Source: an uncultured Alphaproteobacteria bacterium
GTDB taxonomy: Bacteria > Pseudomonadota > Alphaproteobacteria > Rhizobiales > Hyphomicrobiaceae
DNA: 64,000 bases
NCBI GenBank assembly: GCA_963724945.1
Contig: CAVRWL010000004.1
Location: forward strand, 2,093 to 66,092
Direction of reading: 5' to 3'
In this document: positions 14,879 to 45,123 of the stretch, in pieces
Layout of the letters: each line of letters opens with the position of its first letter
How positions within the stretch are numbered: position 1 is the stretch's first letter
The notes under the pieces: generated by a model
Database searches by the model: none
Told to the model about the DNA's origin: nothing
What the model saw: only the letters and a program-made list of their open reading frames with translations
Position numbers and translations under genes: made by a program

Positions 14879-16921
14879 TCAGCCTTCCCGCTCGTGAAAG
14901 TGATCGTAGATTCTCTGCGCCATCTCCGCGGAGATGCCCTCGACCGCCTTGAGGTCCTCCACGCCGGCGCGCGACACCGCCTTCGCCGAGCCGAAGTGGT
15001 TCATGAGGGCGCGCCGGCGCCGCTGGCCGATGCCGGCGATCTCGTCCAAGGGGCTCGCGCTCAAGCTCTTCGAGCGTTTGGCGCGGTGCGTGCCGATGGC
15101 GAAGCGATGCGCCTCGTCGCGCAGCCGCTGCACGAAATAGAGCACCGGATCGCGCGGCTCGAGCAGCAATGGCCGATCGCGGCCGGCAAAGTAGAAATGC
15201 TCACGCCCCGCGTCGCGCTCGGGGCCCTTGGCAACGCCAACCACGCAGAGGTCGTGCAGGCCGAGATCGGCTAGAACCTCACGCGCGATGGCAAGTTGCC
15301 CCATGCCGCCATCGATCAGCACGAGATCGGGACGGTCGGGAAAGAGATCGTCGTCGGGCTCCTCGAAAATGACGGTGCCTGACCCTCCGGGTCTGACACC
15401 GTTTGCACCAGTTGCGGCTTCGTCGACAGCTTCAAACCTAGAGGGTCTGACACTTATCTCCGTCTCATCCGCCACCAAGCGGCGAAACCGCCGCGACAGC
15501 ACCTCGCGCATCATCGCGTAGTCGTCGCCGGGGCTGAGCGTCTCCGACTTGATGTTGAACTTGCGGTACTGGCCTTTGACGAACCCTTCCGGCCCAGCGA
15601 CGATCATGGCGCCGACCGCGCTCGCGCCTTGGATGTGGCTGTTGTCGAACACCTCGATGCGGCGCGGCACGGCGGAAAGCGCAAACCGCTCGGCGAGCGC
15701 CTCCAACAGGCGGCGCTGTGAGGATCCTTCCGCGAGCTTGCGACCGAGCGCCTCGCGCGCGTTGGCGAGCGCGTGCTCGACCAGACCCGACTTGGTCCCG
15801 CGGTGCGGAACTCGGATCTCGATCTTACGCTCGGCCTTGGTCGACAGCGCCTCGGCGAGCAGCGCGCGGTTGGGCACGTCATGCGAGATAAGGATCAGGC
15901 GCGGCACCGGCTTGTCGTCGTAGAATTGCGCGATGAAGCTATCGAGCACGTCCTCGATCGGAAGCGATCGGTCCGCCTTCGGGAAGTAGGCACGGTTGCC
16001 CCAGTTCTGCCCCGTGCGGAAGAAGAACACCTCCACGCAGCTCTGCCCGCCCTCCTGCACGGCGGCGAAGACGTCCGCCTCCTCGATCCCTTCGGGATTG
16101 ATCGCCTGATCCGCCGTGACATGGGCGAGCGCCGCAAGACGGTCGCGGAGCTTAGCGGCGCGCTCGAACTCGAGCTTGGTGGCCGCATCCTCCATCAACC
16201 CCTGGTACATACGCCGCACGTGCTGGCTCTCGCCGCGCAGGAAGCGCACCGCCTCGTCGACGAGCCGGCCGTAGTCGTCAAGCGAGATCTCGCCGGTGCA
16301 CGGCGCCGAGCAGCGCTTGATCTGATAGAGCAGGCACGGCCGCGTGCGGCTCTCGTAGACGCTGTCGGAGCACGAGCGCAGAAGGAACGCGCGCTCGAGC
16401 ATGTTGATCGTGCGGTTGACGGCGCCGGCGGAGGCGAACGGCCCGAAATAGTCACCTTTGCGCTTGCGCGCGCCGCGGTGCTTCATGATCTGCGGCGCGG
16501 GCGTGTCGCGCGCGATCAGAATGTAGGGAAACGACTTGTCGTCGCGCATCAGCACGTTGAAGCGCGGGCGGAAGCGCTTGATGAGGTTTGCTTCCAGCAG
16601 CAGGGCTTCGGCCTCGGTGCGCACCGTGACGAACTCCATCGCCGCGGTGGCCGCGATCATGCGCGCGATGCGGTTGGTGTGCCCACCGAGGCGAGCGTAG
16701 TTGGAGACGCGCGCCTTGAGTGAGCGCGCCTTGCCGACGTAGATGACGGTGCCCTCGCTATCGAGCATGCGATAGACGCCCGGCGAGGAGGGCAAGAGCT
16801 TCAGATAGTGCGCGATGACATCCGGCCCGCTGACGCCAGCACGTTTGGCGGGCGCGTCCTCGGGCGGGGCCTCATTGGCGGGCGCCCCGGCGGGCATCTC
16901 GCGCGTGTCCTTCATTGGCAT
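14879..16921 (-). CDS. uvrC: excinuclease ABC subunit C
   Basis: GIY-YIG (PGVYRM...IYVGKA), [26 protein letters not shown] and HhH motifs; start approximate. Confidence 0.97.
15374..15453. repeat. REP-like palindromic element inside uvrC, in frame
   Basis: Hairpin ggtgcctgaccc-tcc-gggtctgacacc (15374-15400) plus a second gggtctgacac (15443-15453); encodes SVRP/GVRP peptides in an extended loop. Confidence 0.55.
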
Positions 16922-17023
16922 CGGTGGATAGATCGGCCCGCCGCCGCGCCCCGTCAAGCGACGCGCTGGCGGCACTCGCATTAAGACTTGCCCCACGCTG
17001 CGCGCGAAGGGCGTAAAGCCGCT

Positions 17024-17899
17024 CTACCAGACGAGATTCGCCATGGCCGCGACCGGTCGCGGCGCGCCGGGCCGAAACAAACTTTCGAGCGCGACGGCAT
17101 CGAGTCCGCCGGTGACGTGCACGCCACTTGCAACGAAGACCGAGCGGACGCCGGCAGCCGCGGCGCCGGCAATGTCGGTGTTGACCCCGTCGCCGATGGC
17201 GAGCAGGCGCGAGCGCTCGGCGCTTCCCGATCGCAAGGTCTCGAGCGTGGCGAAGGCGAGCTCGTAGATCGGCGGATAGGGCTTGCCGGCGTAGGCCACC
17301 TTGCCGCCCAGCTGCTCGTAGGCGCGCGCAATCGCGCCGGCGCAATAGACGATACGCCCACCCCGCTCCACCGCAATGTCCGGGTTGGCGCAAATCATGG
17401 GAAGGGCCCGTCGCGCGCACACCGTGAGCGTGTCAGTATAGTCATCGGGCGTCTCGCGCTCATCATCGAAGAGGCCCGTGCAAACGACGGCCGCAGCGCG
17501 CTCAGGGCCAACGCGCTCGACGTCGATCCCGGCAAAGATCGGCAGATCGCGCTCCGGCCCCAGGTGCACGATCGCCCGGCCCGCATAGGACCCGATCAGA
17601 GTGCGCGCCACGTCTCCCGAGCTGACGATCACATCCCAGCTCGAGCGGGGAACGCCGATGCGCTCGAGCTGCTCGGCGACGCTGTCGCGCGGGCGTGGCG
17701 AATTCGACAAGAGCAGCACCAGCCCGCCGCGTTGCCGGAAGCGCTCGCAGGCCTCGCAGGCCTCCGCAAACGGACGCACGCCGTTGTGAACGACGCCCCA
17801 GATGTCGACGAGCCAGCCCGTCGTCGCCTCCGCGAGCGGAGCAATCGAGCTGACGAGCGGAATGGCGCCGACGGCAGGGGAGGAGGATTGAGGCGGCAT
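17024..17899 (-). CDS. HAD-superfamily class IIA hydrolase (TIGR01459-like)
   Basis: DIWGVVHNG, LLSNSPR, CANPD, GKPY, AIGDGVNTDI. Confidence 0.92.
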   Translation of the reverse strand: MPPQSSSPAVGAIPLVSSIAPLAEATTGWLVDIWGVVHNGVRPFAEACEACERFRQRGGLVLLLSNSPRPRDSVAEQLERIGVPRSSWDVIVSSGDVARTLIGSYAGRAIVHLGPERDLPIFAGIDVERVGPERAAAVVCTGLFDDERETPDDYTDTLTVCARRALPMICANPDIAVERGGRIVYCAGAIARAYEQLGGKVAYAGKPYPPIYELAFATLETLRSGSAERSRLLAIGDGVNTDIAGAAAAGVRSVFVASGVHVTGGLDAVALESLFRPGAPRPVAAMANLVW

Positions 17900-26587: not shown

Positions 26588-27100
26588 ATGTCACGACCAA
26601 TGACCCCCACCGTTGCGAGCGAAGCACCGCCCGCAAGCGAAGAGCGTTCCCGTACGATCTGCGAGGCTCACGGCAATCGTCCCGACGAGCTTTTGGAGAT
26701 CTTCCACGCGGTGCAGGCCGAGCTCGGCTTCGTGCCCGAGGCGGCGCTGCCCGTCATTGCCGGCGCGCTCAATCTGTCGCGCGCCGAGGTCTACGGCGTG
26801 TTGAGCTTCTATCATGATTTCCGGCGCGCGCCGCCGGGGCGCCACGTGGTCAAGATCTGCCGCGCCGAGGCCTGCCAGGCGATGCACACCGAGGAGGTGT
26901 GCCGCCATGCCGAGCAGCGGCTCGGCACGCATTTCGGCGAGACGAGCGCCGACGGAGAGTTCACGCTGGAGGCCGTCTACTGCCTCGGCAATTGCGCGCT
27001 CTCGCCGGCCATGATGATCGATGACGTCCTCTATGGTTGCGTCGACAAGAAGCGCTTCGACGCGATCATTGCCGACCTCGACAAGGAGGCCGCTGCATGA
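26588..27100 (+). CDS. fdsG: NAD-dependent formate dehydrogenase gamma subunit (NuoE-like, 2Fe-2S)
   Basis: CRAEAC and CLGNC ligands; AEVYGVLSFYHDF. Confidence 0.93.
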   Translation: MSRPMTPTVASEAPPASEERSRTICEAHGNRPDELLEIFHAVQAELGFVPEAALPVIAGALNLSRAEVYGVLSFYHDFRRAPPGRHVVKICRAEACQAMHTEEVCRHAEQRLGTHFGETSADGEFTLEAVYCLGNCALSPAMMIDDVLYGCVDKKRFDAIIADLDKEAAA

Positions 27101-28652
27101 GCAAGGTTTTCGTCCCGTGCGATGCAGCCGCCCTCTCGATGGGCGCGGACGCGGTCGCCAACGCGATCGCCGCGGAAGGCAAGAAACGAAAAAAGGACGT
27201 CGAGATCGTCCGCAACGGCTCGCGCGGCATGCTGTTCCTCGAGCCGCTCGTCGAGGTGGAGACCGAAAAGGGCCGGATCGCCTACGGCCCGGTCACCGCC
27301 GCGGATGTCCCTGACCTGTTCAAGGCCGACTTCCTGGCCGGTGGATCCCACAAGCTTTCGCACGGCCTCACCGAGGAGATTCCCTATTTCAAGAAGCAGG
27401 AGCGCCTCACGTTCGCGCGCTGCGGCATCATCGATCCCTTGTCGATCGAGGACTACCGCGCGCACGCGGGCTTCGAGGGCCTGACCAAGGCGCTCGACAT
27501 GGATCGGGCCGACATCGTCGCCGAGGTCACCACATCGGGCCTGCGCGGTCGCGGCGGCGCGGGCTTCCCCACCGGCATCAAGTGGAAGACCGTCCTCGAC
27601 GCCAAGGCCGACCAGAAATACATCTGCTGCAACGCGGACGAAGGCGACAGCGGCACCTTCGCCGACCGCATGCTGATGGAGGGCGATCCCTTCTGCCTGA
27701 TCGAGGGCATGATCATCGCCGGCATCGCCGTCGGCGCGACCAAGGGCTACATCTACATCCGCTCCGAGTACCCCCAGGCCGTCAAGACCTTCCGCGAGGC
27801 GATCAAGGTCCTGACCGAGGCCAATTGGCTCGGCCGCACGATCCAGGGCTCGCCTTACGATTTCGAGCTTTTCGTGCGTGTCGGCGCCGGCGCCTACATC
27901 TGCGGCGAGGAGACCTCGATGCTCGACAGCCTCGAGGGCAAGCGCGGCATCGTGCGCTACAAGCCGCCGCTGCCGGCGATCGAAGGCCTCTTCGGCCAGC
28001 CGACCGTCATCAACAACGTCGTGAGCCTGGCCTCCGTCCCGATCATCATCGCCAAGGGCGGGGAGTACTACGCGACTTCGGCGTCGGGCGCTCGCGCGGC
28101 ACGCTCGCCTTCCAGCTCGCCGGCAACATCAAGCAGGGCGGCCTCGTCGAGAAGGCGTTCGGCATCACCGCGCGCGAGCTGGTCGAAGGGTTCGGCGGCG
28201 GCACGCTGTCGGGGCGGCCCGTGCGCGCCGTTCAGTTCGGCGGCCCGCTCGGCGCCTATCTTCCAGAGTCGAAGCTCGACTACCCGATGGACTATGAGGC
28301 CTTCATCAAGGCGGGGGCGATGGTCGGCCACGGCGGCGTCGTCGTGTTCGACGACACGGTCGACATGGCCCAGCAGGCACGCTTCGCCATGGAGTTCTGC
28401 GCCGAGGAATCGTGCGGCAAGTGCACGCCCTGCCGCATCGGGTCGGTGCGCGGCGTAGAGGTGATCGACCGCATCATCGCCAACGTCGACCGCGCAGGCG
28501 AACCTCGAGCTCTTGAAGGATCTCTGCGCGACCATGACCGACGGCTCGCTGTGCGCCATGGGCGGACTGACGCCGATGCCGGTCATGCAGCGCGCTCGAG
28601 CACTTCCCCGAGGATTTCAACCGCCCGGCGCCGCGCCGAGGCGGCCGAATGA
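27097..28652 (+). CDS. fdsB: formate dehydrogenase beta subunit (NuoF-like), broken by about 4 indels
   Basis: SGLRGRGGAGFPTG, CNADEGDSGT, GAYICGEET, ESCGKCTPCR, SLCAMG; frame changes near 28073, 28498, 28588, 28636. Confidence 0.9.
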
Positions 28653-28691
28653 CCAAGCGAGGCCACGCTATGACCAGCGAGAACCCAGCCG

Positions 28692-31599
28692 ATGACGCTG
28701 ATCAAGGAACAGGACTACGGCACCCCCGCCAAGCATCCGCACTGCGAACGCGACGGTGACGCTTGAGATCGACGGCCAGGCCGTGACGGTCCCTGAGGGC
28801 ACCTCGATCATGCGGGCGGCCGCCGATGCTCGGCATCAGGTGCCGAAGCTGTGTGCCAGCGACAACCTCGACCGCCTTCGGGTCGTGCCGGCTCTGCCTC
28901 GTCGAGATCGAGGGGCGCAAGGGCACGCCCGCCTCCTGCACCACGCCGGTGGCGCCGGGGATGCAAGGTTGCGACCCAGACCGACCGCCTTGCGCGCATC
29001 CGCAGGGGCGTGATGGAGCTTTACATCTCCGACCATCCGCTCGACTGCCTGACCTGCGCCGCCAACGGCGACTGCGAGCTGCAGGACATGGCGGGCGCAG
29101 TGGGCCTGCGCGACGTCCGCTACGGCTACGACGGCGACAACCATGTGTTCGCGCGCTCCAACGGCGAGACGAACCCGCTGTGGCAAGGCAAGGACAAGTC
29201 CAACCCCTACTTCCAGTTCGAGCCGTCGAAGTGCATCGTGTGCTCGCGCTGCGTGCGCGCGTGCGAGGAGGTGCAGGGCACCTTCGCGCTGACCATCGAC
29301 GGGCGCGGCTTCGCCTCGAACGTCGCTGCCAGCATGGACGAGGACTTCCTGCAATCGGAGTGCGTCTCCTGCGGCGCCTGCGTGCAGGCCTGCCCGACGG
29401 CGACGCTGATCGAGAAGTCCATCGTCGACCACGGCCAGCCCGAGCACTCCGTGGTGACGACGTGCGCCTACTGCGGCGTCGGCTGCTCGTTCAAGGCCGA
29501 GATGCAGGGCGACGAAGGTCGTGCGCATGGTGCCCTACAAGGACGGCGGGCGCCAACGAGGGCCACTCGTGCGTCAAGGGCCGCTTCGCGTTCGGCTACG
29601 CGACGCACAAGGACCGCGTGCTGGACCCGATGATCCGCGAGAAGATCACCGATCCCTGGCAGGTCGTGACCTGGGACGAGGCGATCAAGTTCGCCGCCGA
29701 CCGCTTCATGGCCATCCAGAAGAAGCACGGGCGCGGCTCGATCGGCGGCATCACGTCCTCGCGCACGACCAACGAGGAGGTCTACGTCGTGCAGCGCATG
29801 GTGCGCGCGGCCTTCGGCAACAACAACGTCGACACCTGCGCGCGCGTCTGCCACTCCCCGACCGGCTACGGCCTGAAGCGACGTTCGGCACCTCCGCCGG
29901 CACCCAGGACTTCCGCAGCGTCGACAAGTCCGACGTCATCCTGGTGATCGGCGCCAATCCGACCGACGCCCACCCCGTCTTCGCCTCGCGCATGAAGAGG
30001 CGCCTGCGTGAGGGCGCCAAGCTCATCGTCGTCGACCCGCGCCGCATCGACCTCGTGCAAGCACGCCCGCACGTCAAGGCCGACTATCATCTGCAGTTGC
30101 GGCCCTCGACCAACGTCGCGGTCCTCAACGCGCTGAGCCACGTCGTCGCCGCCGAGGGCCTCATCGATCGTTGCATTCGTCGCGGCGCGCTGCGAGAAGC
30201 ACGATTTCGAGCAGTGGGAGGCCTTCATCAAGGCCGGAGAGAACCGCCCGGAGGCGCTCGAGCCCATCACGGGCGTGCCGGCAGCCGAGATTCGGGCCGC
30301 CGCGCGCCTCTTCGCCACTGGCGGCAACGGCGCGATCTACTACGGCCTCGGCGTCACCGAGCACAGCCAGGGCTCGACCATGGTGATGGCGATGGCCAAC
30401 CTCGCCATGGCGACCGGCAACATCGGCCGCGAGGGCGTGGGCGTGAACCCGCTGCGTGGGCAGAACAACGTGCAGGGCTCCTGCGACATGGGCTCGTTCC
30501 CGCACGAGTTCCCGGGCTACCGCCACGTCTCGGGCGACGCGGTACGCGCAAGCTGTTCGAGAAGGTGTGGGGCAAGAAGCTCGATCCCGAGCCCGGGCTG
30601 CGCATCCCCAACATGTTCGACGCGGCCATCGAGCGGCTCGTTCAAAGGCCTCTTCGTGCAGGGCGAGGACATCGCCCAGTCCGACCCCAACACCCAGCAC
30701 GTGACGCACGCGCTCGACTCGCTGGAGCTCCTCGTCGTGCAGGACCTCTTCCTCAACGAGACGGCCGCCTTCGCGCACGTCTTCCTGCCGGGCACCTCGT
30801 TCCTGGAGAAGGACGGCACCTTCACCAACGCCGAGCGGCGCATCAACCGCGTGCGCCCGGTGATGAAGGAGCCGCAGCGGCAAGGCGGAGTGGGAGATCG
30901 TGTGCCGCATCGCTACGGTGATGGGCTATCCCATGAGCTATCCATCAGCGCCGGCGATCATGGACGAGATCGCCGCTACTGACGCCGACCTTCAAGGGCG
31001 TGAGCTTCGCCAAGCTCGACGAGCTCGGCAGCGTCCAGTGGCCGTGCAACGACGACGCGCCGATCGGCACGCCGGTCATGCACGTCGACGAGTTCACGCG
31101 CGGCAAGGGCCGTTTCAGTTGAGCCGACGTTCGTGCCGACGAACGAGCGCACCAACCGCAACTTCCCGCTCATCCTGACGACGGGCCGCATCCTCTCCCA
31201 GTACAACGTCGGCGCGCAGACGCGGCGCACCGAGAACGTCGTCTGGCACACGGAGGACATCCTCGAGATCCACCCCTCCGACGCAGAGGTTCGCGGCATC
31301 AAGGACGGCGCGCTTCGTCTCGCTCACGAGCCGCGTCGGCGGCACGACGATGCGCGTCCAGATCACCGACCGCATGCCGCCGGGCGTCGTCTACACGACG
31401 TTCCACTATCCCCGCCAGCGGCGCCAACGTGATCACGACGGAGAACTCCGACTGGGCGACCAACTGCCCCGAGTACAAGGTCACGGCCGTGCAGGTCATG
31501 CCGTCGAACCACCCCGCCGAATGGCAGACGGAGTGGGAGGAGCGTGACCGCGAGAACAAGCGCATCGCCGACAAGAAGACGCTGGTTGCGGCCGAGTGA
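28692..31599 (+). CDS. fdsA: Mo-bis-PGD formate dehydrogenase alpha subunit, broken by a dozen or more indels
   Basis: Fragments across frames: PKLCASD..GSCRLCLVEIEG, HPLDCLTC, CIVCSRCVRAC, CVSCGACVQACP, TCAYCGVGC, ARVCHSPT (Cys ligand), LTTGRILSQYNVG. Confidence 0.9.
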
Positions 31600-31658
31600 A
31601 CGAGCGCAGCCACTTTGCTTTGAGCGTTGTGTTGCTTTGAGCGTTGAGCGCCGCCATC

Positions 31659-32483
31659 ATGACCGCCATGGCAAAGAAGTCCGATCTCGTCGCGGCGCCC
31701 TCCGCGGCGCTGTGCTCGCAGCCGGTCGACGCCACGGCCTATGATGCGGGAGGAGAGGGCTCGCCGGTCACCTGGCAAATCCCCGACGAAGTCCCCGTTG
31801 CCATCCAGATCAACTCGGCGCCCTACACGGTGATGATGGCGACGCCGGCGAACCTCAACGAGTTCGGCGTCGGCTTCGCGCTCGCCGAAGGCATCGTGCC
31901 GAGGCGCTCCGATATCCGCGGCGTGCTCGCCATGCCTGTCGAGAGCGGCTTTGCCGTCGATATCGCCATCGATGAGGCGGCGCTCGAAGCAGCGCGTATG
32001 CCGCGCCGCTCCATCGAGGGCCGCTCGGGCTGCGGCCTGTGCGGCGTGGAGAACATCGCCGACGTCGTGCGCGTGACGGCGCCGGTTGAGCGCCAGGTCC
32101 GTCCCGACGCCGCCGCGATCCTGAAGGCCGCCACGGAGCTGCCGCAGCGCCAGCCGATGAACCGGCTCAATCACACCGTGCACGGCGCGGCGTGGGTCTC
32201 GCTTAAGGGCGAGGTTTTGATCGTGCGCGAGGACGTCGGCCGCCACAACGCGCTCGACAAGCTGATCGGCGCGCTTTTCGAGACGGGGACGGACCTCTCC
32301 TCCGGCTTCGTCCTGATGACGAGCCGCTGCTCTTTCGAGCTCGTGCAGAAGGCCGCCACCGTCGGCATCGGCGCGCTCGTAACCGTCTCGGCGCCGACCG
32401 CGCTCGCCCTCAAGATCGCCCGCAACGCCCACCTCTTTCTAGCCTCGCTCGGCGACCGTGGCGTCGTCGTCGTCAACACGTAA
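31659..32483 (+). CDS. fdhD: formate dehydrogenase sulfurtransferase FdhD/FdsC
   Basis: MMATPANL, SGCGLCG, REDVGRHNALDKLIG, TSRCSFELVQKA. Confidence 0.95.
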   Translation: MTAMAKKSDLVAAPSAALCSQPVDATAYDAGGEGSPVTWQIPDEVPVAIQINSAPYTVMMATPANLNEFGVGFALAEGIVPRRSDIRGVLAMPVESGFAVDIAIDEAALEAARMPRRSIEGRSGCGLCGVENIADVVRVTAPVERQVRPDAAAILKAATELPQRQPMNRLNHTVHGAAWVSLKGEVLIVREDVGRHNALDKLIGALFETGTDLSSGFVLMTSRCSFELVQKAATVGIGALVTVSAPTALALKIARNAHLFLASLGDRGVVVVNT

Positions 32484-32518
32484 CGCGCCCTCGGGAGCAA
32501 TCGGGAAAGCCTCGCCTC

Positions 32519-32755
32519 ATGGAAAACCGTGACATGACCCGCATGGCCAATCAGATCGCGGCCTTCTTCGAGGCGTATCCGCGCTCGGAGGCACTCGAGG
32601 GGATCGCAAAGCACGTCAAGAGCTTCTGGGACCCCAGAATGCGCAAGCAGCTCGACGCCTACATCGCCGCGGGGGCCGAAGGCCTGTCGCCTCTCGTCGT
32701 CGCCGCGCTGGCGCCAAAAGGCGGCTCACAACCCAAAGCTAAAGCCAAGGCCTGA
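32519..32755 (+). CDS. fdsD: formate dehydrogenase delta subunit
   Basis: RMANQIAAFF...HVKSFWDPRMR. Confidence 0.93.
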   Translation: MENRDMTRMANQIAAFFEAYPRSEALEGIAKHVKSFWDPRMRKQLDAYIAAGAEGLSPLVVAALAPKGGSQPKAKAKA

Positions 32756-32969
32756 TCGGCAATTCTTGGTTAGCCAATCGCAGCGCGGCCCCGCTTGCAG
32801 CGGCTCCCGGCGAGGCATAGATTCCTCTTATTGCGAAGTTGCGAAGGCCGCGCCGGCGAGAGGCTTTTAGTGGCCCACGGTCCCTTTGCCGTGGGATGCT
32901 CACGCCAGCGATCTTGCTCTCTATGCGCGGCCGATGAAATGGCAGGAGGACCGCCACAGGAGGACCGTC

Positions 32970-33440
32970 ATGGGACTCGCATTGACGCTGCAGCAATACC
33001 TCGATGACAAGCACATCGACTACGATGTCCTGAAGCACAAGCGCACGCACTCATCGGAAGGCACCGCGCGCGCGAGCCACGTGCCCGGCGAGCGTCTCGC
33101 CAAAGCCGTGGTGCTGACGCGCGAGGGCGGCTTCGTCGTCGCCGTCGTTCCCGCCTGCGCCAAGGTCCGGCTCGATAGCATCGAGAGGATCCTCCATTGC
33201 CCCGTGAGCATAGCGAGCGAGGACGAGATCGCGGAGCTGTTCCCCGACTGCGATACGGGCGCGGTGCCGCCGATCCCGGAGGCCTACGCCGTCGAAGCCT
33301 TCATCGACGAGAGCCTGGATGCGCAGCCCGACGTCTATCTGGAGGGCGGTGACCATCGCAGCCTCGTCCACATCTCGGGCGAGCAGTTCCGCGCTCTGAT
33401 GAAGGACGTGCGTCACGCGCGCATTGCCGCGAGCCACTGA
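32970..33440 (+). CDS. YbaK/EbsC family aminoacyl-tRNA deacylase
   Basis: LAKAVVL, FPDCDTGAVPP, GGDHRSLV; RBS CAGGAGG. Confidence 0.9.
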   Translation: MGLALTLQQYLDDKHIDYDVLKHKRTHSSEGTARASHVPGERLAKAVVLTREGGFVVAVVPACAKVRLDSIERILHCPVSIASEDEIAELFPDCDTGAVPPIPEAYAVEAFIDESLDAQPDVYLEGGDHRSLVHISGEQFRALMKDVRHARIAASH

Positions 33441-33470: not shown

Positions 33471-36400
33471 TCACACGACCGCCGTCTTGTCGAGGTGCGC
33501 CACCATGAGCGGGTAGACGTCGCGGGCTGCATTCTTTCCGAAGATGCAGTCGATGTGGCCATACCCGGGGATTACCCGGCGCTCGTAGAGCTGGCGGCCG
33601 TTCGCTGCGGCGAGCCGCTCAAGCGTCCGCTCCGTGCTCGCGGGAAGGAAGCACGCGTTCTTGGCCCCGTGGATGAACAGGATCGGCAGCGCCAGGCGCC
33701 CGATATGGGGCAGGTAGACGTCGTTGCCGTTTCTGTCGAGCACGTGTCCTCTCCGCGTAAAGAGGGCGAGCTCTTTGAAGGCGTCGATGTTGGCCTCCCC
33801 GAACATCTCGGCAAGGCCCGAGGTGACGGTCGCCTCGTTGAGCTGCTCGAGCTGGTAGAGCCGCCCGTAGAGCGCGGTGATGCGGTTCGAGGTGGCGTCA
33901 CGCGTGCGTTCCGAGCGCGGCACCGCAACGATGAGCTGCAGCACCTTGTCGAGCGCGCGCTCGAGGAGCCCGTCGGAGGTGGTCGCGCGCGCGTCCACGA
34001 CGTCTATCCCCATCAGATCGAAGACATCCGGCGCGTGCAGGTACGCGAGCATCCGCTGCGGGAACAACGGCACGACGTAGTCGGTGGCGATTTGCGATAT
34101 GACGGCCGAGCGCACGCCTTCCAGGCCCGCCAACATCGCCATGGAGAAGGTGGTCGCGCCGAAGCAATGGGCGAGCATCTGCACCGTGGCAGAGCCGGTA
34201 ACGGCGCGCACCTTGGCGAGCGCGGCCGGATAGTCCTTGGTGGCGACGTCGTCGCCGGTCCACAGCTCGCGCGCGTAAGGCAGATCGACGCTGGCGCGGT
34301 AGTCGAGCAGCCAGCAGTCGTAGTCCGCCGCGACCAGGAACTCGATGAGGTTGGTCTCGATGGTATCGATCGCATAGATGAGGCTCGAGACGCCGAGCCC
34401 GTGCGAGAGCACGACGGGGCCCTTGCCGCCGCCGCGATAGCGCGTGAGCTTGAGGACCTTGCCGTCGCTCGTCTTGGCGAGATGAAACTCGGGCTCCGGC
34501 ACGCGCAGCGTCCGCTTCTTGCGCGGATTGACGGTATCGTAGCGGCCTGGGCGTGACAGCACGCCTCCGTAGGTGTCGAACAGCTCGCGGCTGAAGAAGC
34601 GTCCGAACTTGGCGACGGCCCGCAGACGATCGGCGGAATCCCGCCCGCCGAAGCCCTTAAGCGTCTGCATTTGCACGTAGAAATCAGATGGCGCGATCTC
34701 CAGCATGCCACGCGCGATATGCCCCGTCTGGGCCTTGGCGCCCATGCCGAGGTCGACATAAAGCCGCGTGGTGTCGCGCCAAAGGTCGAGATCGGCGTCC
34801 GAGCGCACGATCTTGTAGCCCTCGAAGTAGAACTCGCGGCCGTCACGCGCGCCGAAGGAGAAGCGGTAGTCGAAATGCTTGGTCTCCACCTCGTCCTCGT
34901 CCAACCGCAGCAGATTGAAGACGCCGTCAAAGATGTCCATGGGTTCCGGCGACAGCGAGGGACACTCGACGGAGCCGATGATGCGGCCGTTGTGGCTCTT
35001 CTCGTCGACGAAGCGGTCGACGTCGTCGATGATTACCGTGACGGTGAAGCTTAAGGGCGTTCCGGCGTCGCGCCCGCGCCGCGCCGCCGTCTCGTGCGGC
35101 AACGTCACGTCGGGGGAGACGTAGCCCGCCATGCGCTCGGTGAACTCGACGCCGGCGGGCGCGAGCTTCTCGCGTCCATCCGGGCCGGCGTAGAGTGCCG
35201 GTGCATCCGTCTTCGGCGCATCCGAGAAGGTCAGGCCGTAGTCGCGGGCGAGATGGATCATCGCGCGCTCGGCGAGCGCCGTTATCGTCAGCAAGGGATT
35301 GACGCCCAAGGGGCGCGGAATGACCGAGCCGTCGCACACGTAGAGCCCGGCGTGCACCGCGCCATCGGCTGCGTCGGGATGCGCGTCAAACACCTGGCAT
35401 TTGTGGTCCACGACGCCGCGCGTTCGATCCTGCCCCATCACGCAGCCTCCGAGCGGATGCACGGTGATGAGGCTGTTGCCGAGGATCGTATCGGTCAGCG
35501 GATTGCGCACGAAGGTGCCGCCGGTCGCTCTCGTCGCCCGCTTCAGGTTGCGCTCGGCGGCAGCGAAGATCGGCTGCTCGGCGACGCCCGGCCACGACAC
35601 CTCGAGGCCGCCCGTCGTCGAGCCCGATGCGGCCCCGGCCGTCGTCATGGCTCATGACGAGATACGTCTGCGTGCGGTGGATAGCGCCCTGATAGGGGCC
35701 GAACAGCAGGCTCTGGCGCTCGCGCGCCTGCTCCTCGAGCGCGTCGAGAAGGCCTTTGTCCATGTCCTCCCCGAAGCGCGCCGCGCCGGCGGCCATGAGT
35801 GCCGGCAGCACAGGCGCGAGGCCCGACGGGATCGATCCTTCCTCGATCACCATGCCGTCCTCGAGCCGCTCTGCGTCGCGCAGATCGATGAGGCCAGTGA
35901 TGCAGGGCCCGACGGGTCCCGTCTCGGCAGTGGGCGGCGCGCCGACGCCGATGCCGTTGACGGGCACGTCGTTGTTGTAGGCGAAGGCGAGCACGTCGCC
36001 GTTGCCGGTGAAGCGCTCGCCCAATTGATCGGAGACGGCGAGGCCCGCCGCGCGCGAGCGCAAGAGGATCTCGGTGGAACCGAGCGTGCCGGCGGCGAGC
36101 ACGACGATATCGGCGGTGATCGACTGGTCGGCGGCGGCGAACTTCTCGCGCTCGAGCCCCAAGGGCTCGAAATAGACGCGCCAGCGCCCGCGCTCGGGCA
36201 AGACGTGCGTGACGCGCAGCTCGGTGAAGATCTCGGCGCCGTGATTGTAGGCGTCCGCGATATAGGTCACCTGCACCGTGTTCTTCGCGCCGACATTGCA
36301 GCCCGCGCAGCAATCGCCGCACAGCGTGCATGCCGGCTGCTCGACGCCCGCGTAGTTGACCTGGCGCTCGAAGGTGACGTTGATCGGCGGGCGCACCACG

Positions 36401-36909
36401 TCGCGGCCGAGCAAGTTGCCGCTCACCTCCAGCGCCTTCAGCTTGGCGAGTGGCGGCGCGTCGGGATAGGGCGTGGGGCGCAGCACCTCTTGCGCGCGCG
36501 CAAAGCCCTCCTGGCGCGTCTCGTCGCCGGCGATCTCCTTGGGCCAGACGGGATCGTCCCAAACGCGCGGATCGGGGGGCAGCGAGACGTTGGCGTTGAT
36601 GAGCGAGCCGCCGCCCAGCCCGCAGCCGAGCAGCACGTGAATGTCGTTGCCGAGGCGGAGATCATAAAGCCCGAGCCGCGAGCCGGCGATGTGGGTGCCG
36701 TCCTTGGCGACCTGAAACTGCTCCTGCGCCTCGATCAAGCGGTCGGGAAAGTCGCCGATCGCAAACTCGCGGCCGCGCTCGAGCACGGCGACGCGCTTGC
36801 CGCAACGGGCGAGCCGCGAGGCGGCGACGCCGCCGCCGTAGCCCGAGCCGACCACGACGACATCGTAGCGCAGCTTCAGATCGGCGATGGACTTGGACAG
36901 CCGCCGCAT
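33471..36909 (-). CDS. cholesterol-oxidase-like GMC oxidoreductase fused to an alpha/beta hydrolase (~1145 aa; one extra base near 35612)
   Basis: VVVVGSGYGGGV FAD motif, GCGLGGGSLINANV, TVHPLGGC, GVNPLLTITALAER; C-terminal hydrolase with AHCFG and GYGHID. Confidence 0.88.
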
Positions 36910-36913
36910 CGCC

Positions 36914-38720
36914 TCAGTCTCCTCCTGCGCCCATCAAGTCGCGCCGCCAATGCCCGAACCACACGGGCTCTTTCTTGTCCGCGGCTGCAGCCTTGGGCGG
37001 CGCAATGACGGGACGCTCAGGCGCGTCCTCCCCCTTCATCTCCCAGCCGTAGTCGCGGGCGAGATGGATCATCGCGCGCTCGGCGAGCGCCGTGATGGTC
37101 AACAGCGGGTGGATGCCGAGCGGGCACGGGATGACGGCGCCATCGCAGACGTAGAGGCCGGCATGCACGGCGCCTGCGTCGCGATCCTCGCTCGTGTCGA
37201 ACACCTGCCCCTTGTGATTGACGACCCCCATCGTGCGGTCGGCGCCCATGGTGCACCCGCCGAGCGGGTGCACGGTCATGAGGTTGCCGCCGAAGATGCG
37301 CTCCGTCGCCGGATTGCGCATGTAGGTGCCGCCCGTCGCCGCCGCCGCGGCCATGAGCACGCTCTCGATGCGTTGGAACACACGCTGGCGCGGACCGTTG
37401 GACCATTCGATGGCTATGCGATCGTCTTGCAGCCGCATCAGGCCGTTGCCGGCATCGTGGCCGACCGCGAGGAACGTCTGCGTGTTGTGGACGGCGCCGT
37501 CGTAAGCGCCCTTGATCAGACTTTCGGTCGCGCGACCCAAAGCGTCGAGACCGTCGGAAAGCGATCGAGCCTCGCTCTCGCCGAACAGCGCGGCGCCAGG
37601 TGCCAAGAGCGCCGGCAGTAGCGGCGCGAAGGCGCTCGGCAACGCGCACTCGACGATCGCCAGGCCGTTCGCGCACATCGGGGTCGTCGCGCAGATCGAT
37701 GAGGCCGTTGACGGCCTGCCCCACCGGCGGCACGTGCACCTTCGCCGGGTAGCCGACGCCGACACCATTGACGGGGACGTCGTTGTTGTAGGCGAGCGCG
37801 ATTGCGTCGCCGTTGCTGGTGAAGCGGGCCCCGAGCCATTCCGAGAGCTTGAGGCCTTTCGCCTGCGAGCGCAGCAGGATCTCGGTGGAGCCGAGCGTGC
37901 CCGCCCCGAGCACGACGATGTCGGCTTTGATCTCGTCCCTGAAGGAGCGGTGCCGGCTACCATCGCCGCCGCGTATCCAGACGCGCCACGCGCCGTCCGC
38001 CTCCTTGGCAAGCGCGTAGACGCACGTCTCGGTGAAGATCTCCGCGCCGAAGCTCTCCGCGTCCGCGAGGTAGGTCGAGGCGACCGTGGTCTTGGCGCCG
38101 ACGTTGCAGCCGCCGCAGCAGTCCCCACACTGCGTGCAGCCCTCCTGGTAGACGCCGGCGGCGTTGGGAGCCGGACGCTTGGGCGACATGCAAAGGCACC
38201 GGCGAAACACTGCGCCCCAAGGCCGACGCGGCGAGGCGGAGCGCGCGCACTTTTTCAAACGAAGATGTGTCGGCGCACGGCTCAGGGCGCAGCATGTGGC
38301 GCGCGCGCACGAAGCCCTCGGCCAGCAGCCGGTCGCGGCGCACCTGCCGGCGGCCAGGCGCGATCATCGAACACGCGCGCATCGGGCGACAGGCAGACGT
38401 TGGCGTTGATGAGGGACGTGCCGCCGAGACCGCAGGCCATCATGACATTGACGTCTTCGCCGAGACGCACGTCGAACAACGCGGTGCGCTGAGCCCATGC
38501 GCACGTGCGCGCCGCTCACCTGCACCTCCTTCGCCGCGGCGGTCGCGCGATCGGGGAATTCGCCGGGGAGGAACTCGCGACCGCGCTCGAGCACGGCGAC
38601 GCGCTTGCCGCAACGGGCGAGCCGCGCGGCGGCGACCCCGCCGCCATAGCCCGAGCCGACCACGACGACGTCGTAATCCGCTTTGAGCTCGGAAGCTGGC
38701 TTCGATAGCCGCGCCTGCAT
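36914..38720 (-). CDS. second cholesterol-oxidase-like GMC oxidoreductase, multiple indels and a garbled stretch
   Basis: DVVVVGSGYGGGV, CGLGGTSLINANV, CTQCGDCCGGCNVGAK, TVHPLGGC, GIHPLLTITALAER recovered from several frames. Confidence 0.85.
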
Positions 38721-38729
38721 GATTCCCTC

Positions 38730-40710
38730 AAGCTCCCTCCGGACGGGCTTTCGCGACGTTTGATGTCCCCAACGCGTATCTCGATCGGGCCCTCGATGAG
38801 GATCGGCCGCAAGGGCCGCAGCGGCACGATGGCCGGGCCCGCGGAGACTTCATCGCCGCCGCGCTGCTTGGCGCGGCGCCACGCCCAGCGCCGCGGCGTC
38901 CGGCGCAGCCCTACGGGAAAGATCGTCAGCTTGTTCGGCTCGATCTTGAGGCGAAGAAAATTCTTGTAGTCGGGAATGCCCATCGACGCGAATGCCTGAT
39001 CGCAGTGCAGCCCGATGAGACAAGCAGATCGTCAGGTAGGCGCCCCAGACGAAGCCCGCGGCGATACCGCCGAGGAAGATCAGCTCGAGCGGAAAGACCA
39101 CGATGGCGCGGATGAGACCTTTCACCGTGCCCGGGGTGTCGATCTGCATCTGCTGCAGCGTCGTCACCGCGCGCGGCCACAGCCAGTCGACGCTCACCCT
39201 CGAGGTCCACGATATGAAGGCGTAGAGCGCGAGCATCATCGCAATGTGCGCGAGCCCAGTGCAGGCAGGCGAGCGCCACGCGCACCCGGTTGCCGTAGGC
39301 GGGGTCCGCATAGATGAACAGCACGACCCACAGGCCCAAGCACAACAACCCCAGCATGACGTTGTTCGCCGCAGCCAACGGGGCAATGATGAAGATGTGC
39401 GGGAACCAGTGGAAATCGGGGTCCTTGTTCAGGATGTCGCCCACCTCCTGGAAGCGCCAGTTGCTCCCCTCGAGCCGCGTCGTGGCGAAGAACCAGGTGA
39501 TCAGCCAGTAGAAGAAGCCCAAAGCGACGGCAAAACCGTAGTTCTTGAAGGGAAACGCGAGCGTCCAAAGGCTCAAGCGGCGGCTCGTCATGCGCGAGGG
39601 CCAGCACGACGGCTTGTCCGTGCTCTTGCCGTTCTTGATCTTGCAGCGAAGCGTGAGATCGATGTCCTGCCCAAGCCACGTGAACTTGCGCACGCTTTTC
39701 AAATAGTGCGTGGGCGAGAAGTAGGCGCCGCCGCCGCCCGCGGTGAAGAAGCTTGTGCCGCCGCCACCGTCTTTCGCGACAAAGCGGCTGTAATGATGCA
39801 GGTCGCCGGAGAGAACGGCACAGATGCGCGCGCCAGCGTCATCGGCAATCTTGGTGATCTGGCTGAGGTTGTCCTCGCCCTGCTGCGTGTCGCCTTTGTC
39901 GTAGTTCCACGTGGGCTCAGGCGTGCACAAGATCAGCTTGGGGGCTTCGGTCGGGTGCTGCTTCATCGCCTCGGCGACGCCCTCGAAGTAGAGCACCTGG
40001 CCGGCGTCGAGGTATTGCGCGAGCTGGATGTCGGCGCCCCAGATCCACCAGTTGTGCGGCAGCCGTATCGCGAAGTAGCTGCGGTGCTGCGGGCACAGCC
40101 AGCCGCCGATGTGGTTCTGGGTGTCGTGCCCGAAGCGGGCCTTGCAGAACATGTAGTCGAAGGAGCTGAGACCGTCGTACCAGTCATGGTTGCCGGGCAG
40201 CACGAACAAGAGCCGGCGCCAGTTGCCGTCGGAGGCCGCAGGCAGCGCCGTCTTGTAAGGGAATTCAAATCGCTCGCGGTAGGCCTTGCGCGTCGGGTAG
40301 GGATAGACCTGGTCGCCGCCCATGACGAGCAGCTTGGCGGCGGGAAGCTTGCCGACCCCGTCGATCTCGACCGACGGCGCACTGATCAGCGAGGCCATCG
40401 CGAAGGTGGAATCGAAGCCGTCGCCCAGGTCGGCGACATAGTCGACCCAAACCGTATTGCCGTCGCCGAGCTGGGGTAGGTCGGAGTAATTGTAGCGTCC
40501 GACGACGGTCTTCATCACCTCGGGCGTAAAGCCGTCGATCGTCGCCTGCATGATGCGCTGGTCGGCATATTGGCCGAAGAGCTCGGAGACGACGGAGCGC
40601 CAGCCCGTAGAGACGAGATGGCCCGGGCTGTACCAGCGGACCATGCGCGGCAGCGCATTGATGTCGACGGGCTCCCCCCGGCCTGAGGCCATGTGCCGAA
40701 CTCCCCCCAT
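38730..40710 (-). CDS. membrane-bound calcineurin-like metallophosphoesterase (indels near 39290 and 39015; 3' end approximate)
   Basis: DYVADLGD, MGGDQVYP, PGNHDWYDG, SGDLHHY, then several TM helices and YKNFLRLKI. Confidence 0.8.
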
Positions 40711-41019
40711 GCGACTGAAATAACGACGTTTCTTGGCGGCCGGAGTCCCGCAGTCCGTCCTCGCCCGAGTTTAGGTTGGTGCGCCAACGATGTCCAGGAT
40801 GGCACCCAGGGATGCCCGGCAGCTGTTGCAGCCGGCCGATCGGCGGCAACCATTGGGCCGCAATGGCGGGATGGAGGCGCGCCCCACCCGGTTGACGCCG
40901 GTCATAGGCCGGCCGGCGGCGCCGCCCTAGGATGCTTCTCAACCAGGGCTTAACCCGCATCCGCTTGGCTTGCCTTACCCGACCAGTTGGCCCTGCAGCA
41001 GCACTCAAGGGGAACGACG

Positions 41020-43011: not shown

Positions 43012-43086
43012 TGGCTGGGGCGGGAGGACTCGAACCTCCGAATGGCGGAATCAAAATCCGCTGCCTTACCACTTGGCTACGCCCCA
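43012..43086 (-). tRNA. tRNA-Gln (anticodon TTG)
   Basis: Reverse complement TGGGGCGTAGCCAAGTGGTAAGGCAGCGGATTTTGATTCCGCCATTCGGAGGTTCGAGTCCTCCCGCCCCAGCCA, 75-nt cloverleaf with CCA. Confidence 0.97.
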
Positions 43087-43271: not shown

Positions 43272-45044
43272 CTAGCGCGAAGGCTCGAGAACTTTCAGTG
43301 CCTCCGCCAGATCGCGTACCGGTCGCGTCTTGATCTCTTGCAGGTGGAATCGGTCTTCGATCATCTTGATGATTGACGTCGTGTCGAAGTCCTCGTGGGC
43401 CACGCCGGATTTCGCGAAGGCGCTAGAGACGAGCAGGGTCGGTATGCGGGTGCCGGGGCCCCACGCATCGGCAGCCGCCTTGTCGGAGCCATGCCGACCA
43501 TGTGGTGGAGGCGGCACGTGATCCCACGCGCCGCCGAACTCGTCGTACGTGACCACGATCAACGTGTCCTTGCCATCCGGCCCATTCACGATAGCCTTGA
43601 TCAGATCGACGAGATGGCTGCTGCCTTCCAACTCGCTGGTGTAGCCGGGATGCTCGTTCTCCTCGCCGACCGGCTTAATGAAGCTGACCGGCTTGAGCCT
43701 GCCCTCGTGCGCGGCCTTGATGAACTCCGCCTCGTCGAGCAAGTGGGCGGCGCGGGCCGCTGCGTGTGGCTGGGTATCGGCTGCGAAATTCGCGAAGTAG
43801 TTGAACGGCTGGTGGTGATACTGGAAATTCTTGTCCGGACAATGCGGGAAGCCCAGGCCCTGCAGCGGCACGAGCGGACTGTTGGCATCGGCGGGATCGG
43901 CATGAGTGGCTCTGGTGTCGGCATTCGGGTCGCTGCAGGCGGGGCCGCTACCGTTGGTCCAGCCGGGTGCACCGACAATGCCATTGGCATTCGACCAGCC
44001 GCCCGAATACCAGGCCCAGTCCACGTGCTCGGCCGTAAGCCGGTCACCGATCGTGGGGTTGGTGAGCAAAGGCAGGCGCTTTGCAGCGGCAGTGCCGGGC
44101 TGATACGGCCAAGAGATCGGCTGGATCGTGTTGACGGCGTAGTCGCCACACACGATGCCCTGCGGGGTCGCGGGCCGCCCCGCGGGCGGATTGCACGCAG
44201 CCGTCAGCGACCTTGGCTTCGCCGCAGCCCCCAGCGGGCTCGCGTAGAGTGGCGTGCTCATCGGCATGCCGTTGGCGTCGACGACTGAGTGAAGATCATT
44301 GGCGCCGCCATCGTTGGCCGCACCGGCGAATACCGGCGCAGCGCCTGCGATCAGCCATTGATGGTTGAGAAAGGATCCGCCGAAGGCTCCCTGAAAGAAG
44401 TGATCGGCTATCACGTAGTTAGGGGCACCATGGCTGTTGAGATACTTGTAGATCGGCAGATTCGTCGTGTCGTAGTAGCCCATCGAGAGGCCGGCCGCGT
44501 CGCTGCCAGTCACGTATCGGTTCTGCTTGCCCCCGTTGATCTGGTACTGCTCGATGTAATAGCGATGCACGAGGTCCCTCGTGCAGCCGCCAGGCAGACC
44601 CGTACCCTTCGCTTTTCCGTTGCCGGTGCGCTCACCCGGCGCAGGGCAGGTCGCGTCGCGCGAGGAGATGTAGGCGTCGATCTTGAAGGGCTTGTTGTCG
44701 AACGCACTCTCAAAGGGAGTTGCACCTGTGTTGTCCGTGCAGGTGGTCGCTAGCGGTGGCGCGGACGTGAGATTCACATCGTCCTGCAGCAGGCAGGTGT
44801 ACGGCGTGGTCCCGTCCTGGCGGACCTGTGGCGAATGCGCGGCGGCCGTCTCGGCATTGGCGAAGCCGTCGACCGGCTCCCCATCTACCTTGCCCCACAG
44901 GCCGAAGAGATTATCGAAGCTGTGGTTCTCCTGGTAGATGACGACGATGTGCTTGAAGTCGTCCAGACCAGCAGCATCGGCGAATGATGACGGCACCGCC
45001 GCACCGATGATCGCCGCAAGTGCGCACACGCCTTGAAACCGCAT
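43272..45044 (-). CDS. secreted acid phosphatase / phosphoesterase family (AcpA/PLC-like)
   Basis: Signal peptide; KHIVVIYQENHSFDNLFG, FGGSFLNH, NEHPG, TYDEFGGAWDHV. Confidence 0.9.
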   Translation of the reverse strand: MRFQGVCALAAIIGAAVPSSFADAAGLDDFKHIVVIYQENHSFDNLFGLWGKVDGEPVDGFANAETAAAHSPQVRQDGTTPYTCLLQDDVNLTSAPPLATTCTDNTGATPFESAFDNKPFKIDAYISSRDATCPAPGERTGNGKAKGTGLPGGCTRDLVHRYYIEQYQINGGKQNRYVTGSDAAGLSMGYYDTTNLPIYKYLNSHGAPNYVIADHFFQGAFGGSFLNHQWLIAGAAPVFAGAANDGGANDLHSVVDANGMPMSTPLYASPLGAAAKPRSLTAACNPPAGRPATPQGIVCGDYAVNTIQPISWPYQPGTAAAKRLPLLTNPTIGDRLTAEHVDWAWYSGGWSNANGIVGAPGWTNGSGPACSDPNADTRATHADPADANSPLVPLQGLGFPHCPDKNFQYHHQPFNYFANFAADTQPHAAARAAHLLDEAEFIKAAHEGRLKPVSFIKPVGEENEHPGYTSELEGSSHLVDLIKAIVNGPDGKDTLIVVTYDEFGGAWDHVPPPPHGRHGSDKAAADAWGPGTRIPTLLVSSAFAKSGVAHEDFDTTSIIKMIEDRFHLQEIKTRPVRDLAEALKVLEPSR

Positions 45045-45123
45045 TCGAGCCTCCACATGACAAGTGCGTGCACGATTTAACGGCGCTGTGCGACGCTCTT
45101 ACGTCGTAGGATGCTCGCAGCGG

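Follow-up and report, generated by a model that had tools for sequence, protein, structure and literature searches.

The stretch analysed here (the window) comprises 64,000 nucleotides of contig CAVRWL010000004.1, from an uncultured Alphaproteobacteria bacterium of the Hyphomicrobiaceae. Its minus strand carries, at 33471-40710, three co-oriented genes encoding a membrane metallophosphoesterase (MPE), a stand-alone GMC flavoenzyme (GMC#1), and a fusion protein in which a second GMC enzyme is followed by an unnamed middle β-barrel domain (MID) and an α/β hydrolase. A preliminary description of the sequence had presented them as three tightly packed, co-oriented genes. Their positions, strand and order held, but none of the three is an intact open reading frame (ORF) in the window: seven one-base insertions and a possible eighth insertion or deletion (indel) divide them into about ten pieces. 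The entries of the ORF list (38926-40710, 38516-38983, 37017-38258, 36914-38128, 35386-36909 and 33471-35648) are overlapping pieces and not three genes; reading the genes as first described requires jumps between frames. On these pieces, Pfam recovered the domain make-up given earlier, with Metallophos on the first, GMC_oxred_N and GMC_oxred_C on separate pieces, and GMC_oxred_C together with Abhydrolase_1 on the last. The reported gap of 4 nt between the two GMC genes was also found, the stop codon of GMC#1 lying at 36914-36916 and the start of the fusion at 36909. The distance from the MPE stop to the GMC#1 start is ~7 nt, provided that the last MPE frame is corrected, and the ATG of GMC#1 at 38720 has GGAGG ahead of it.

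The breaks were located using a frame plot of the GC content at third codon positions (GC3), three-frame translation, and tblastn with intact Hyphomicrobium proteins. The reference proteins came from the complete genome of Hyphomicrobium sp. 1Nfss2.1 (L002). Over 33471-40710 (-), the coding signal is unbroken and the best frame switches about nine times. Searched against the window, the intact L002 proteins aligned in three pieces for the MPE (frames -2, -3 and -1, 54-72% identical), five for GMC#1 and two for the fusion. Compared with the intact frame, each of the seven breaks adds one base. The corrected pieces contain no internal stops, keep all catalytic motifs and have a GC3 of ~0.9. At the end of the MPE, a one-base shift at 38740-38760 would give a protein terminating in ...KARPEGA, followed by TGA at 38730-38728.

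A contig from another assembly (L001), whose DNA is 93.5% identical to the window, is separated from it by ~60 indels within 14.3 kb, most of them of one base. Its MPE, GMC#1, fdsA, fdsB and fdsG genes are broken at other places, and its fusion gene is intact. Mismatches between the two, counted in the corrected frames, amount to 3.9%, 1.8% and 12.7% at codon positions 1, 2 and 3, respectively, and position 3 holds the most mismatches in each of the ten corrected pieces, those downstream of breaks included. The formate dehydrogenase genes next door are also split in the window (fdsA into at least five pieces, fdsB into three). The indel-rich stretch covers ~14 kb (26.4-40.8 kb), while other genes, such as those at 14899-17824 and 60950-62941, keep a single frame. 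Five related Hyphomicrobium-type genomes (L002, L005, L006, L008 and L009) carry an unbroken trio, and in a metagenome-assembled genome with 'contig_' names (L007) breaks occur in the fusion and fdsA alike.

Since the fds genes are broken in the same manner, L001 is broken elsewhere, substitutions are biased towards third positions and relatives carry intact genes, we read the seven or eight frame breaks, which the preliminary description had missed, as most probably indel errors of the assembly and not gene decay. A real conserved operon with artefactual frameshifts is, by these sequence comparisons, very probable. Were the operon instead a truly decayed pseudogene cluster, the frameshifts would be real mutations; seven or eight independent breaks within 7.2 kb, extra bases that do not sit in long homopolymers, and several unbroken genes elsewhere in the window would agree with this. 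We consider it very unlikely, given the equally broken formate dehydrogenase genes, the different break positions in the second strain, the prevalence of third-position substitutions downstream of each break, and corrected pieces that are free of in-frame stops, have a GC3 of ~0.9 and retain every catalytic motif. At about one indel per 1-2 kb over 14 kb, ORF-based annotation of this genome will yield false pseudogenes.

Table 1 Genes, frame breaks and flanking features of the locus, in window positions.
Feature	Position	Strand	Remarks
MPE gene	38728..40692	-	~650 aa after frame correction
GMC#1 gene	36914..38720	-	~600 aa; cholesterol-oxidase-like GMC flavoenzyme, without MID
Fusion gene	33471..36909	-	1145 aa once the extra base at 35607 is skipped
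MPE frameshift 1	39253 (+/-2 nt)	-	One extra base, inside TM helix 3 (TM3); gap in L001 alignment, frame -2 to -3
MPE frameshift 2	39025	-	One extra base; tblastn and L001 alignment
Possible third MPE indel (uncertain)	38740..38760	-	Within the last ~12 codons; uncorrected frame runs into GMC#1
GMC#1 frameshift	38486	-	One extra base; tblastn and L001 alignment
GMC#1 frameshift	38348	-	One extra base; tblastn and L001 alignment
GMC#1 frameshift	38169	-	One extra base; tblastn and L001 alignment
GMC#1 frameshift	37669	-	One extra base; tblastn and L001 alignment
Fusion frameshift	35607	-	Extra C in GGGCGGCCTCGAG; tblastn and L001 alignment
YbaK/tRNA_edit gene	32886..33440	+	Convergent downstream neighbour; marks the 3' end of the operon
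Weak sigma-70-like site TGGACA-17-TAAACT	40768..40796	-	Upstream of the MPE start

The MPE comprises a purple-acid-phosphatase/PhoD-like domain (~40692-39600), four transmembrane (TM) helices (~39555-39021) and a C-terminal tail (~39020-38728). The multi-TM C-terminus described earlier corresponds to the four predicted helices, which also appear as four segments in the hydropathy plot; they are followed by a conserved, soluble, β-rich tail of ~90 aa (AlphaFold2 (AF2) model and hydropathy). Against the Pfam Metallophos model (PF00149, cut-off 21.5 bits), the window piece scored 19.6 bits, the L002 protein 21.0 and a Pedobacter homologue 25.0. The motifs DLGDGFD, GGDQVYP, GNHDWYDG and GDxHHY are invariant in our alignment of the MPE family (A1). 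So are residues D83, D87, G89, D90, G125, D126, Y129, G166, N167, H168, D169, H202, G295, D296, H298 and H299, all of which are present in the window pieces. The metal-binding motif set (DxxD/GD, GDxxY, GNH[DE], H and GxHH) is complete, its GDxxY being of the purple acid phosphatase (PAP) type. With the AF2 model (mean confidence, pLDDT, 71), Foldseek returned purple acid phosphatase (7.5e-5), PhoD (8.1e-4) and SMPDL3A (1.6e-3), with probabilities of at least 0.99 for the purple acid phosphatases and PhoD and low TM-scores (0.22-0.41). An MPE profile run against the sequences of the PDB gave a chance match to PilC only.

Within TM3, an L-H-W-x-A-H motif (HxxxH; ~39280-39250; H470-H474 in A1) is invariant, and the first MPE frameshift falls here. 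Another invariant His lies directly after TM4. These residues suggest a separate binding or catalytic site within the membrane module.

Inspection of the N-termini agreed with the earlier statement that signal peptides are lacking: none is signal-peptide-like, and in both GMC proteins the flavin adenine dinucleotide (FAD) motif begins at residue 16. From the lack of signal peptides and the even number of TM helices in the MPE, we predict that the catalytic domains lie in the cytoplasm; both soluble parts of the MPE, domain and tail, are predicted to face that side.

A search for the MPE family returned 2347 matches, all named 'hypothetical'. When GTDB was scanned with the MPE alignment, using a single genome for each species, the family turned up in at least 571 species, among them members of the Alpha-, Beta- and Gammaproteobacteria, Bacteroidota, Rhodothermota, Balneolota, Acidobacteriota, Myxococcota, Gemmatimonadota, Actinomycetota and Nitrospirota. 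A second clade of four-TM MPEs (~730-750 aa, ~36% identical) occurs in Hyphomicrobiaceae and Methyloligellaceae (L011-L021, L024). It has no GMC gene within 10 kb, and some genomes thus hold two paralogs in different contexts.

Both GMC genes encode Pfam GMC_oxred_N and GMC_oxred_C domains above cut-offs and share the FAD dinucleotide motif DVVVVGSGYGGG. In GMC#1, this DVVVVGSGYGGG motif is accompanied by C..C..C...C, HPLGGC and GIHPLLT. At the positions equivalent to His447 and Asn485 of cholesterol oxidase, the fusion has HPLGGC and GVNPLLT, and in the GIHPLLT of GMC#1 a His replaces the Asn. The best solved relatives of the GMC domain are class I cholesterol oxidases (1B4V, 2e-24). The NCBIfam equivalog model for ChoA/ChoB (NF058674), however, gave the intact Hyphomicrobium orthologues 156.5 and 169.4 bits, far below its cut-off of 850. 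A C-x2-C-x2-C-x3-C motif is invariant in all GMC proteins of the cluster described below, where ChoA has a Cys-free loop, and this four-Cys site may bind a metal or an Fe-S centre. The full motif, C-x2-C-x2-C-x3-C-[NQ]-x2-[AS]-K-N, has ferredoxin-like spacing and lies at ~38200 in GMC#1 and ~36330 in the fusion; it recurs in all cluster GMC proteins of loci L005-L084, and solved cholesterol oxidases do not have it.

A maximum-likelihood tree of GMC domains placed the GMC#1 clade as sister to the clade of fusion GMC domains with support of 97/95. The same species order was recovered in both clades, with stem lengths of 0.28 for GMC#1 and 0.10 for the fusion. As judged from this tree, GMC#1 is a tandem duplicate that arose in an ancestor of the Hyphomicrobiaceae, the copy without MID and hydrolase having then diverged.

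In the fusion, the GMC domain (36909 to ~35200) is followed by the MID β-barrel (~35153-34506) and a Cys-nucleophile α/β hydrolase (~34505-33474). The joined protein, at 1145 aa, equals its homologues in length and is 96% identical to one of them (P0001) over 100% of the query. The family search gave 3174 matches, annotated as 'cholesterol oxidase' or 'alpha/beta fold hydrolase', with full-length members of 1142-1150 aa and identities from 55% to 96%.

The hydrolase domain matches the α/β fold model PF00561 with 32.5-41 bits (cut-off 25.8) and is weakly similar to gastric lipase. Its nucleophile elbow reads A-H-C-F-G in place of the G-x-S-x-G of serine lipases. Across phyla, all 29 of the 29 sequences compared keep the H-C-x-G motif, the His of Y-x-H-x-D and an Asn where the acid usually stands. 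The class III PhaC model TIGR01836 scored 19.6 bits against a cut-off of 365, the Cys nucleophile being the only feature in common.

The MID (fusion residues ~585-800) could be aligned with 31 further MID domains. This alignment of 32 sequences contains invariant Glu, Gly, Phe, Tyr and Trp residues, a near-invariant His, Lys and D-T-T, and an FTExMxG motif. The domain spans ~200 aa, has no Pfam match, and was modelled by AF2 (pLDDT 86) as an antiparallel β-barrel with a long C-terminal helix. The weak Foldseek matches to the lipocalin PGDS and the ADC-like MppR have TM-scores of ~0.2-0.3, and hhalign found no relation between the MID and the ADC-like protein of the cluster (probability 0.3%). 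A MID profile collected 2614 clusters at 50% identity, with architectures such as GMC-MID, MID-hydrolase, GMC-MID-hydrolase, MID-GMC, patatin-MID, MPE-MID-hydrolase and PLAT-GMC-MID-hydrolase; every enzyme type of the cluster has the MID as a fusion partner in some lineage. The unusual chains (P0285, P0352, P0308 and P0277) are MPE-MID-hydrolase, PLAT-GMC-MID-hydrolase, GMC-MID-hydrolase-hydrolase and a DAO-type flavoprotein joined to a MID.

Linkage between these modules was counted by tblastn with the separate modules on 80 MPE loci, 45 of which have at least 6 kb on both flanks. The preliminary description had named rare co-occurrence as a ground for refutation; across ~eight phyla the fully flanked loci carry a GMC (25/45), a MID (24/45) or a hydrolase (21/45) beside the MPE, in several fusion combinations and with differing gene order and fusion state. 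Linkage of MPE, GMC, MID and hydrolase is strong, and it is not obligatory. GMC, MID and hydrolase form one chain in the Hyphomicrobiaceae and in loci L048, L053 and L079. In Bacteroidota, a GMC-MID protein is accompanied by a separate hydrolase, and in Rhodothermota, Acidobacteriota, Myxococcota and Actinomycetota the GMC stands alone and the MID is carried by a patatin protein. In Methyloligellaceae, a 752-aa MPE paralog lies immediately upstream of the fusion. Patatins, ADC-like proteins and small membrane proteins are frequent additional members: of the loci, 17 contain an ADC-like gene and 18 a patatin gene.

The operon of Pedobacter westerhofensis encodes a hydrolase, an ADC-like protein, a DUF1772/Anthrone_oxy protein, an unknown protein, a DUF4345 protein, a patatin, the MPE and GMC-MID. 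This eight-gene cluster belongs to a cultured type strain (DSM 19036; L081 4423-14123), and a divergent LuxR/GerE-type regulator lies upstream of it; the strain is well suited to genetic work. The 1145-aa fusion also occurs by itself, with neither MPE nor second GMC, on a Ralstonia megaplasmid (L088) and a Rhizobium leguminosarum plasmid (L089). Lone fusions on secondary replicons were found in Ralstonia (127 records), Ensifer, Rhizobium and Azospirillum, at 47-52% identity.

In Hyphomicrobium species, the operon occupies a fixed place, with genes for EipA, a 508-aa protein and bactofilin upstream and YbaK-like, fdsD, fdhD and fdsA genes downstream; the window has the same downstream side. Neither in the window nor in L002 does a patatin, ADC-like, DUF1772 or DUF4345 gene border the trio. 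Since these genes do not adjoin it, the trio is, as far as gene content and sequence indicate, a Hyphomicrobiaceae-specific reduced form of a multi-phylum, MID-linked cluster of lipid enzymes. Neither this nor the origin of the second GMC as a lineage-specific tandem duplicate appeared in the preliminary description. The window adds three points: a minimal form in the Hyphomicrobiaceae, a tandem duplication of the GMC gene, and apparent gene breaks that are most probably assembly noise.

The YbaK/tRNA_edit gene also lies downstream of the trio in other Hyphomicrobium genomes. The formate dehydrogenase operon beyond it (26600-32700 (+); fdsG, fdsB, fdsA, fdhD, fdsD) contains many one-base indels. 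A scan for promoters and terminators found nothing above chance (one sigma-70-like site against 0.8 expected), which gives no evidence that the site in Table 1 is functional, and an Rfam search of the window returned two tRNAs only, with no riboswitch near the operon. On the other side, a PF04185 phosphoesterase gene of the phospholipase C / acid phosphatase type (43272-45056 (-)) adjoins a tRNA gene (43015-43086 (-)). We rejected it as a fourth member of the operon in view of its signal peptide, the tRNA gene and small ORFs in between, and its absence from the same place in L001. A further ~1.1 kb (41.7-43.0 kb) is likewise absent from L001, and the PF04185/tRNA region looks like a variable islet beside a tRNA.

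Searches of NCBIfam, Pfam, PADLOC, the PDB and the literature yielded no characterised pathway, family or structure that assigns the cluster a function, in keeping with the earlier remark that none was described for the trio. A study of the lipocone does not mention GMC proteins (PMC12419801), and the PADLOC models gave no match beyond a chance FAD match.

We propose that the trio is a conserved operon whose breaks are artefactual and whose products jointly process a lipid at the cytoplasmic face of the membrane, and we assign this account as a whole a probability of roughly 60%. All catalytic domains being predicted to face the cytoplasm, the proteins would act together at the membrane on one hydrophobic substrate. 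The MID barrel would hold that substrate, acting as the module that the enzymes share for binding or docking. Removal of a phosphate or phospho-head group would fall to the MPE, and the Cys hydrolase would cleave off an ester-linked acyl chain, or transfer it, via an acyl-thioester, as the patatin of the larger cluster would also do. Last, the GMC enzymes would convert the exposed hydroxyl to a carbonyl. This three-step sequence of reactions is tentative, and we hold it with distinctly less than even confidence. A lipid-like substrate had been suggested from the outset. The patatin and PLAT fusion partners and the similarities to acid lipases and cholesterol oxidases lend that suggestion indirect support, and it is still an inference; the sterol or hopanoid version of it found no specific support.

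Several observations weigh against the account. The extra bases lack a long homopolymer context, and other genes of the window run in one frame, so that the noise is regional. About 45% of the fully flanked MPE loci have no GMC within 10 kb, two other Alphaproteobacteria (L086, L087) have only the pair of GMC and fusion genes, and the fusion stands alone on the Ralstonia and Rhizobium replicons. The Cys4 motif matches Fer4 Pfam models weakly (E 2e-3 to 7e-3), and Foldseek with the MID found nothing in the PDB below E 1e-3, the best match being lipocalin PGDS at E 7.7e-3.

Among other functions, a 3-hydroxyacyl lipid or polyester route is unlikely. Here, a 3-hydroxyacyl group would be set free or carried by the Cys hydrolase and the patatin, in the form of a thioester of the polyhydroxyalkanoate (PHA) synthase type, the GMC enzymes would oxidise it to a 3-ketoacyl, and the ADC-like protein of the larger cluster would decarboxylate the product to a methyl ketone. 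The invariant Cys nucleophile, as in PHA synthases and depolymerases, the weak class III PhaC match, the ADC-family gene in 17 loci of the larger cluster and the oxidation of secondary alcohols by GMC enzymes are consistent with such a route. However, the PhaC score falls far short of its cut-off (19.6 against 365 bits), the Hyphomicrobium form has no ADC-like gene, ADC-family proteins also include aldolase-dehydratases (PDB titles), and the role of the MPE would be left unexplained.

We regard as quite unlikely a sterol or hopanoid pathway, in which a steryl- or hopanoid-ester hydrolase is combined with a 3-hydroxy oxidase, as an orthologue of cholesterol oxidase plus esterase. Class I cholesterol oxidases are the closest solved structures, JGI labels family members 'cholesterol oxidase', and the hydrolase is similar to acid lipases, among which are cholesteryl-ester hydrolases. 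ChoA-type enzymes are secreted, whereas the cluster proteins have no signal peptide; the equivalog scores of 156-169 bits are far from the cut-off of 850, and the Cys4 insertion is not present in ChoA. Furthermore, the cluster spans phyla of very different polycyclic-lipid content, and none of the gene neighbourhoods inspected contained sterol or hopanoid genes.

Finally, a conflict or defence module, with patatin and phosphoesterase as membrane-damaging effectors triggered by infection, is highly improbable: known defence systems include patatin and metallophosphoesterase domains, and copies of the genes lie on plasmids and megaplasmids, but the PADLOC models found no match, the chromosomal position next to the fds operon does not vary among Hyphomicrobium species, the protein trees follow those of the species, and no sensor, nuclease or mobile-element genes adjoin.

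Returning to joint lipid processing at the membrane, enzymes of lipid type together with a domain that has no Pfam or PDB match occur in hundreds of species of many phyla with no assigned pathway, which suggests a gap in the knowledge of bacterial membrane-lipid metabolism. A broader interpretation, which we offer as a doubtful possibility, is that GMC-MID-Cys-hydrolase and the four-TM MPE form the minimal core of an unrecognised membrane-bound assembly in ~eight or more phyla. The MID would be its lipid-holding hub and the flavoenzyme a metal or Fe-S dehydrogenase rather than an oxidase, and the assembly would serve an undescribed turnover or remodelling of a common membrane lipid. The Hyphomicrobium form is minimal (MPE, one fusion and a duplicate oxidase) and shows which parts travel together; it also occurs in relatives that can be grown in culture and are open to knock-outs and lipidomics.

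We also compared the proteins with known systems. The class I cholesterol oxidases ChoA and ChoB (1B4V, 1COY, NF058674) share with the cluster GMC proteins the two-domain fold, the N-terminal GxGxGG FAD motif, the catalytic His in HPLGG and the Asn in GVNP...TITALAER. Unlike them, the cluster GMC proteins have no signal peptide and contain CxxCxxCxxxC, the fusion adds MID and hydrolase, and GMC#1 has a His for the Asn. Gastric and lysosomal acid lipases (1HLG, 1K8Q) have the same α/β-hydrolase fold, with a weak match in the acid-lipase N-terminal region. As in these lipases and in Cys-nucleophile enzymes such as PHA synthases and dienelactone hydrolase, the elbow and the C-terminal His are likewise placed; in contrast to the acid lipases, the nucleophile is an invariant Cys instead of Ser, and an invariant Asn takes the place of the acid.

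Purple acid phosphatase, PhoD and SMPDL3A match the MPE in fold and have the PAP-type GDxxY and the GNHD motifs in common with it, whereas the MPE is predicted to be intracellular and has a unique four-TM module whose TM3 contains the invariant HWxAH, as well as a C-terminal tail that is conserved. In Bacillus subtilis, UpsH (YpbG) and UshA (YqjL), a cytoplasm-facing, membrane-anchored MPE and an α/β hydrolase, cleave lipid-linked phosphoesters (PMC11898649). They differ in belonging to another MPE subfamily (COG1408, single TM) and in having neither a GMC partner nor a MID. For the MPE and hydrolase steps proposed here, this pair, alike at the superfamily level, offers a precedent in function.

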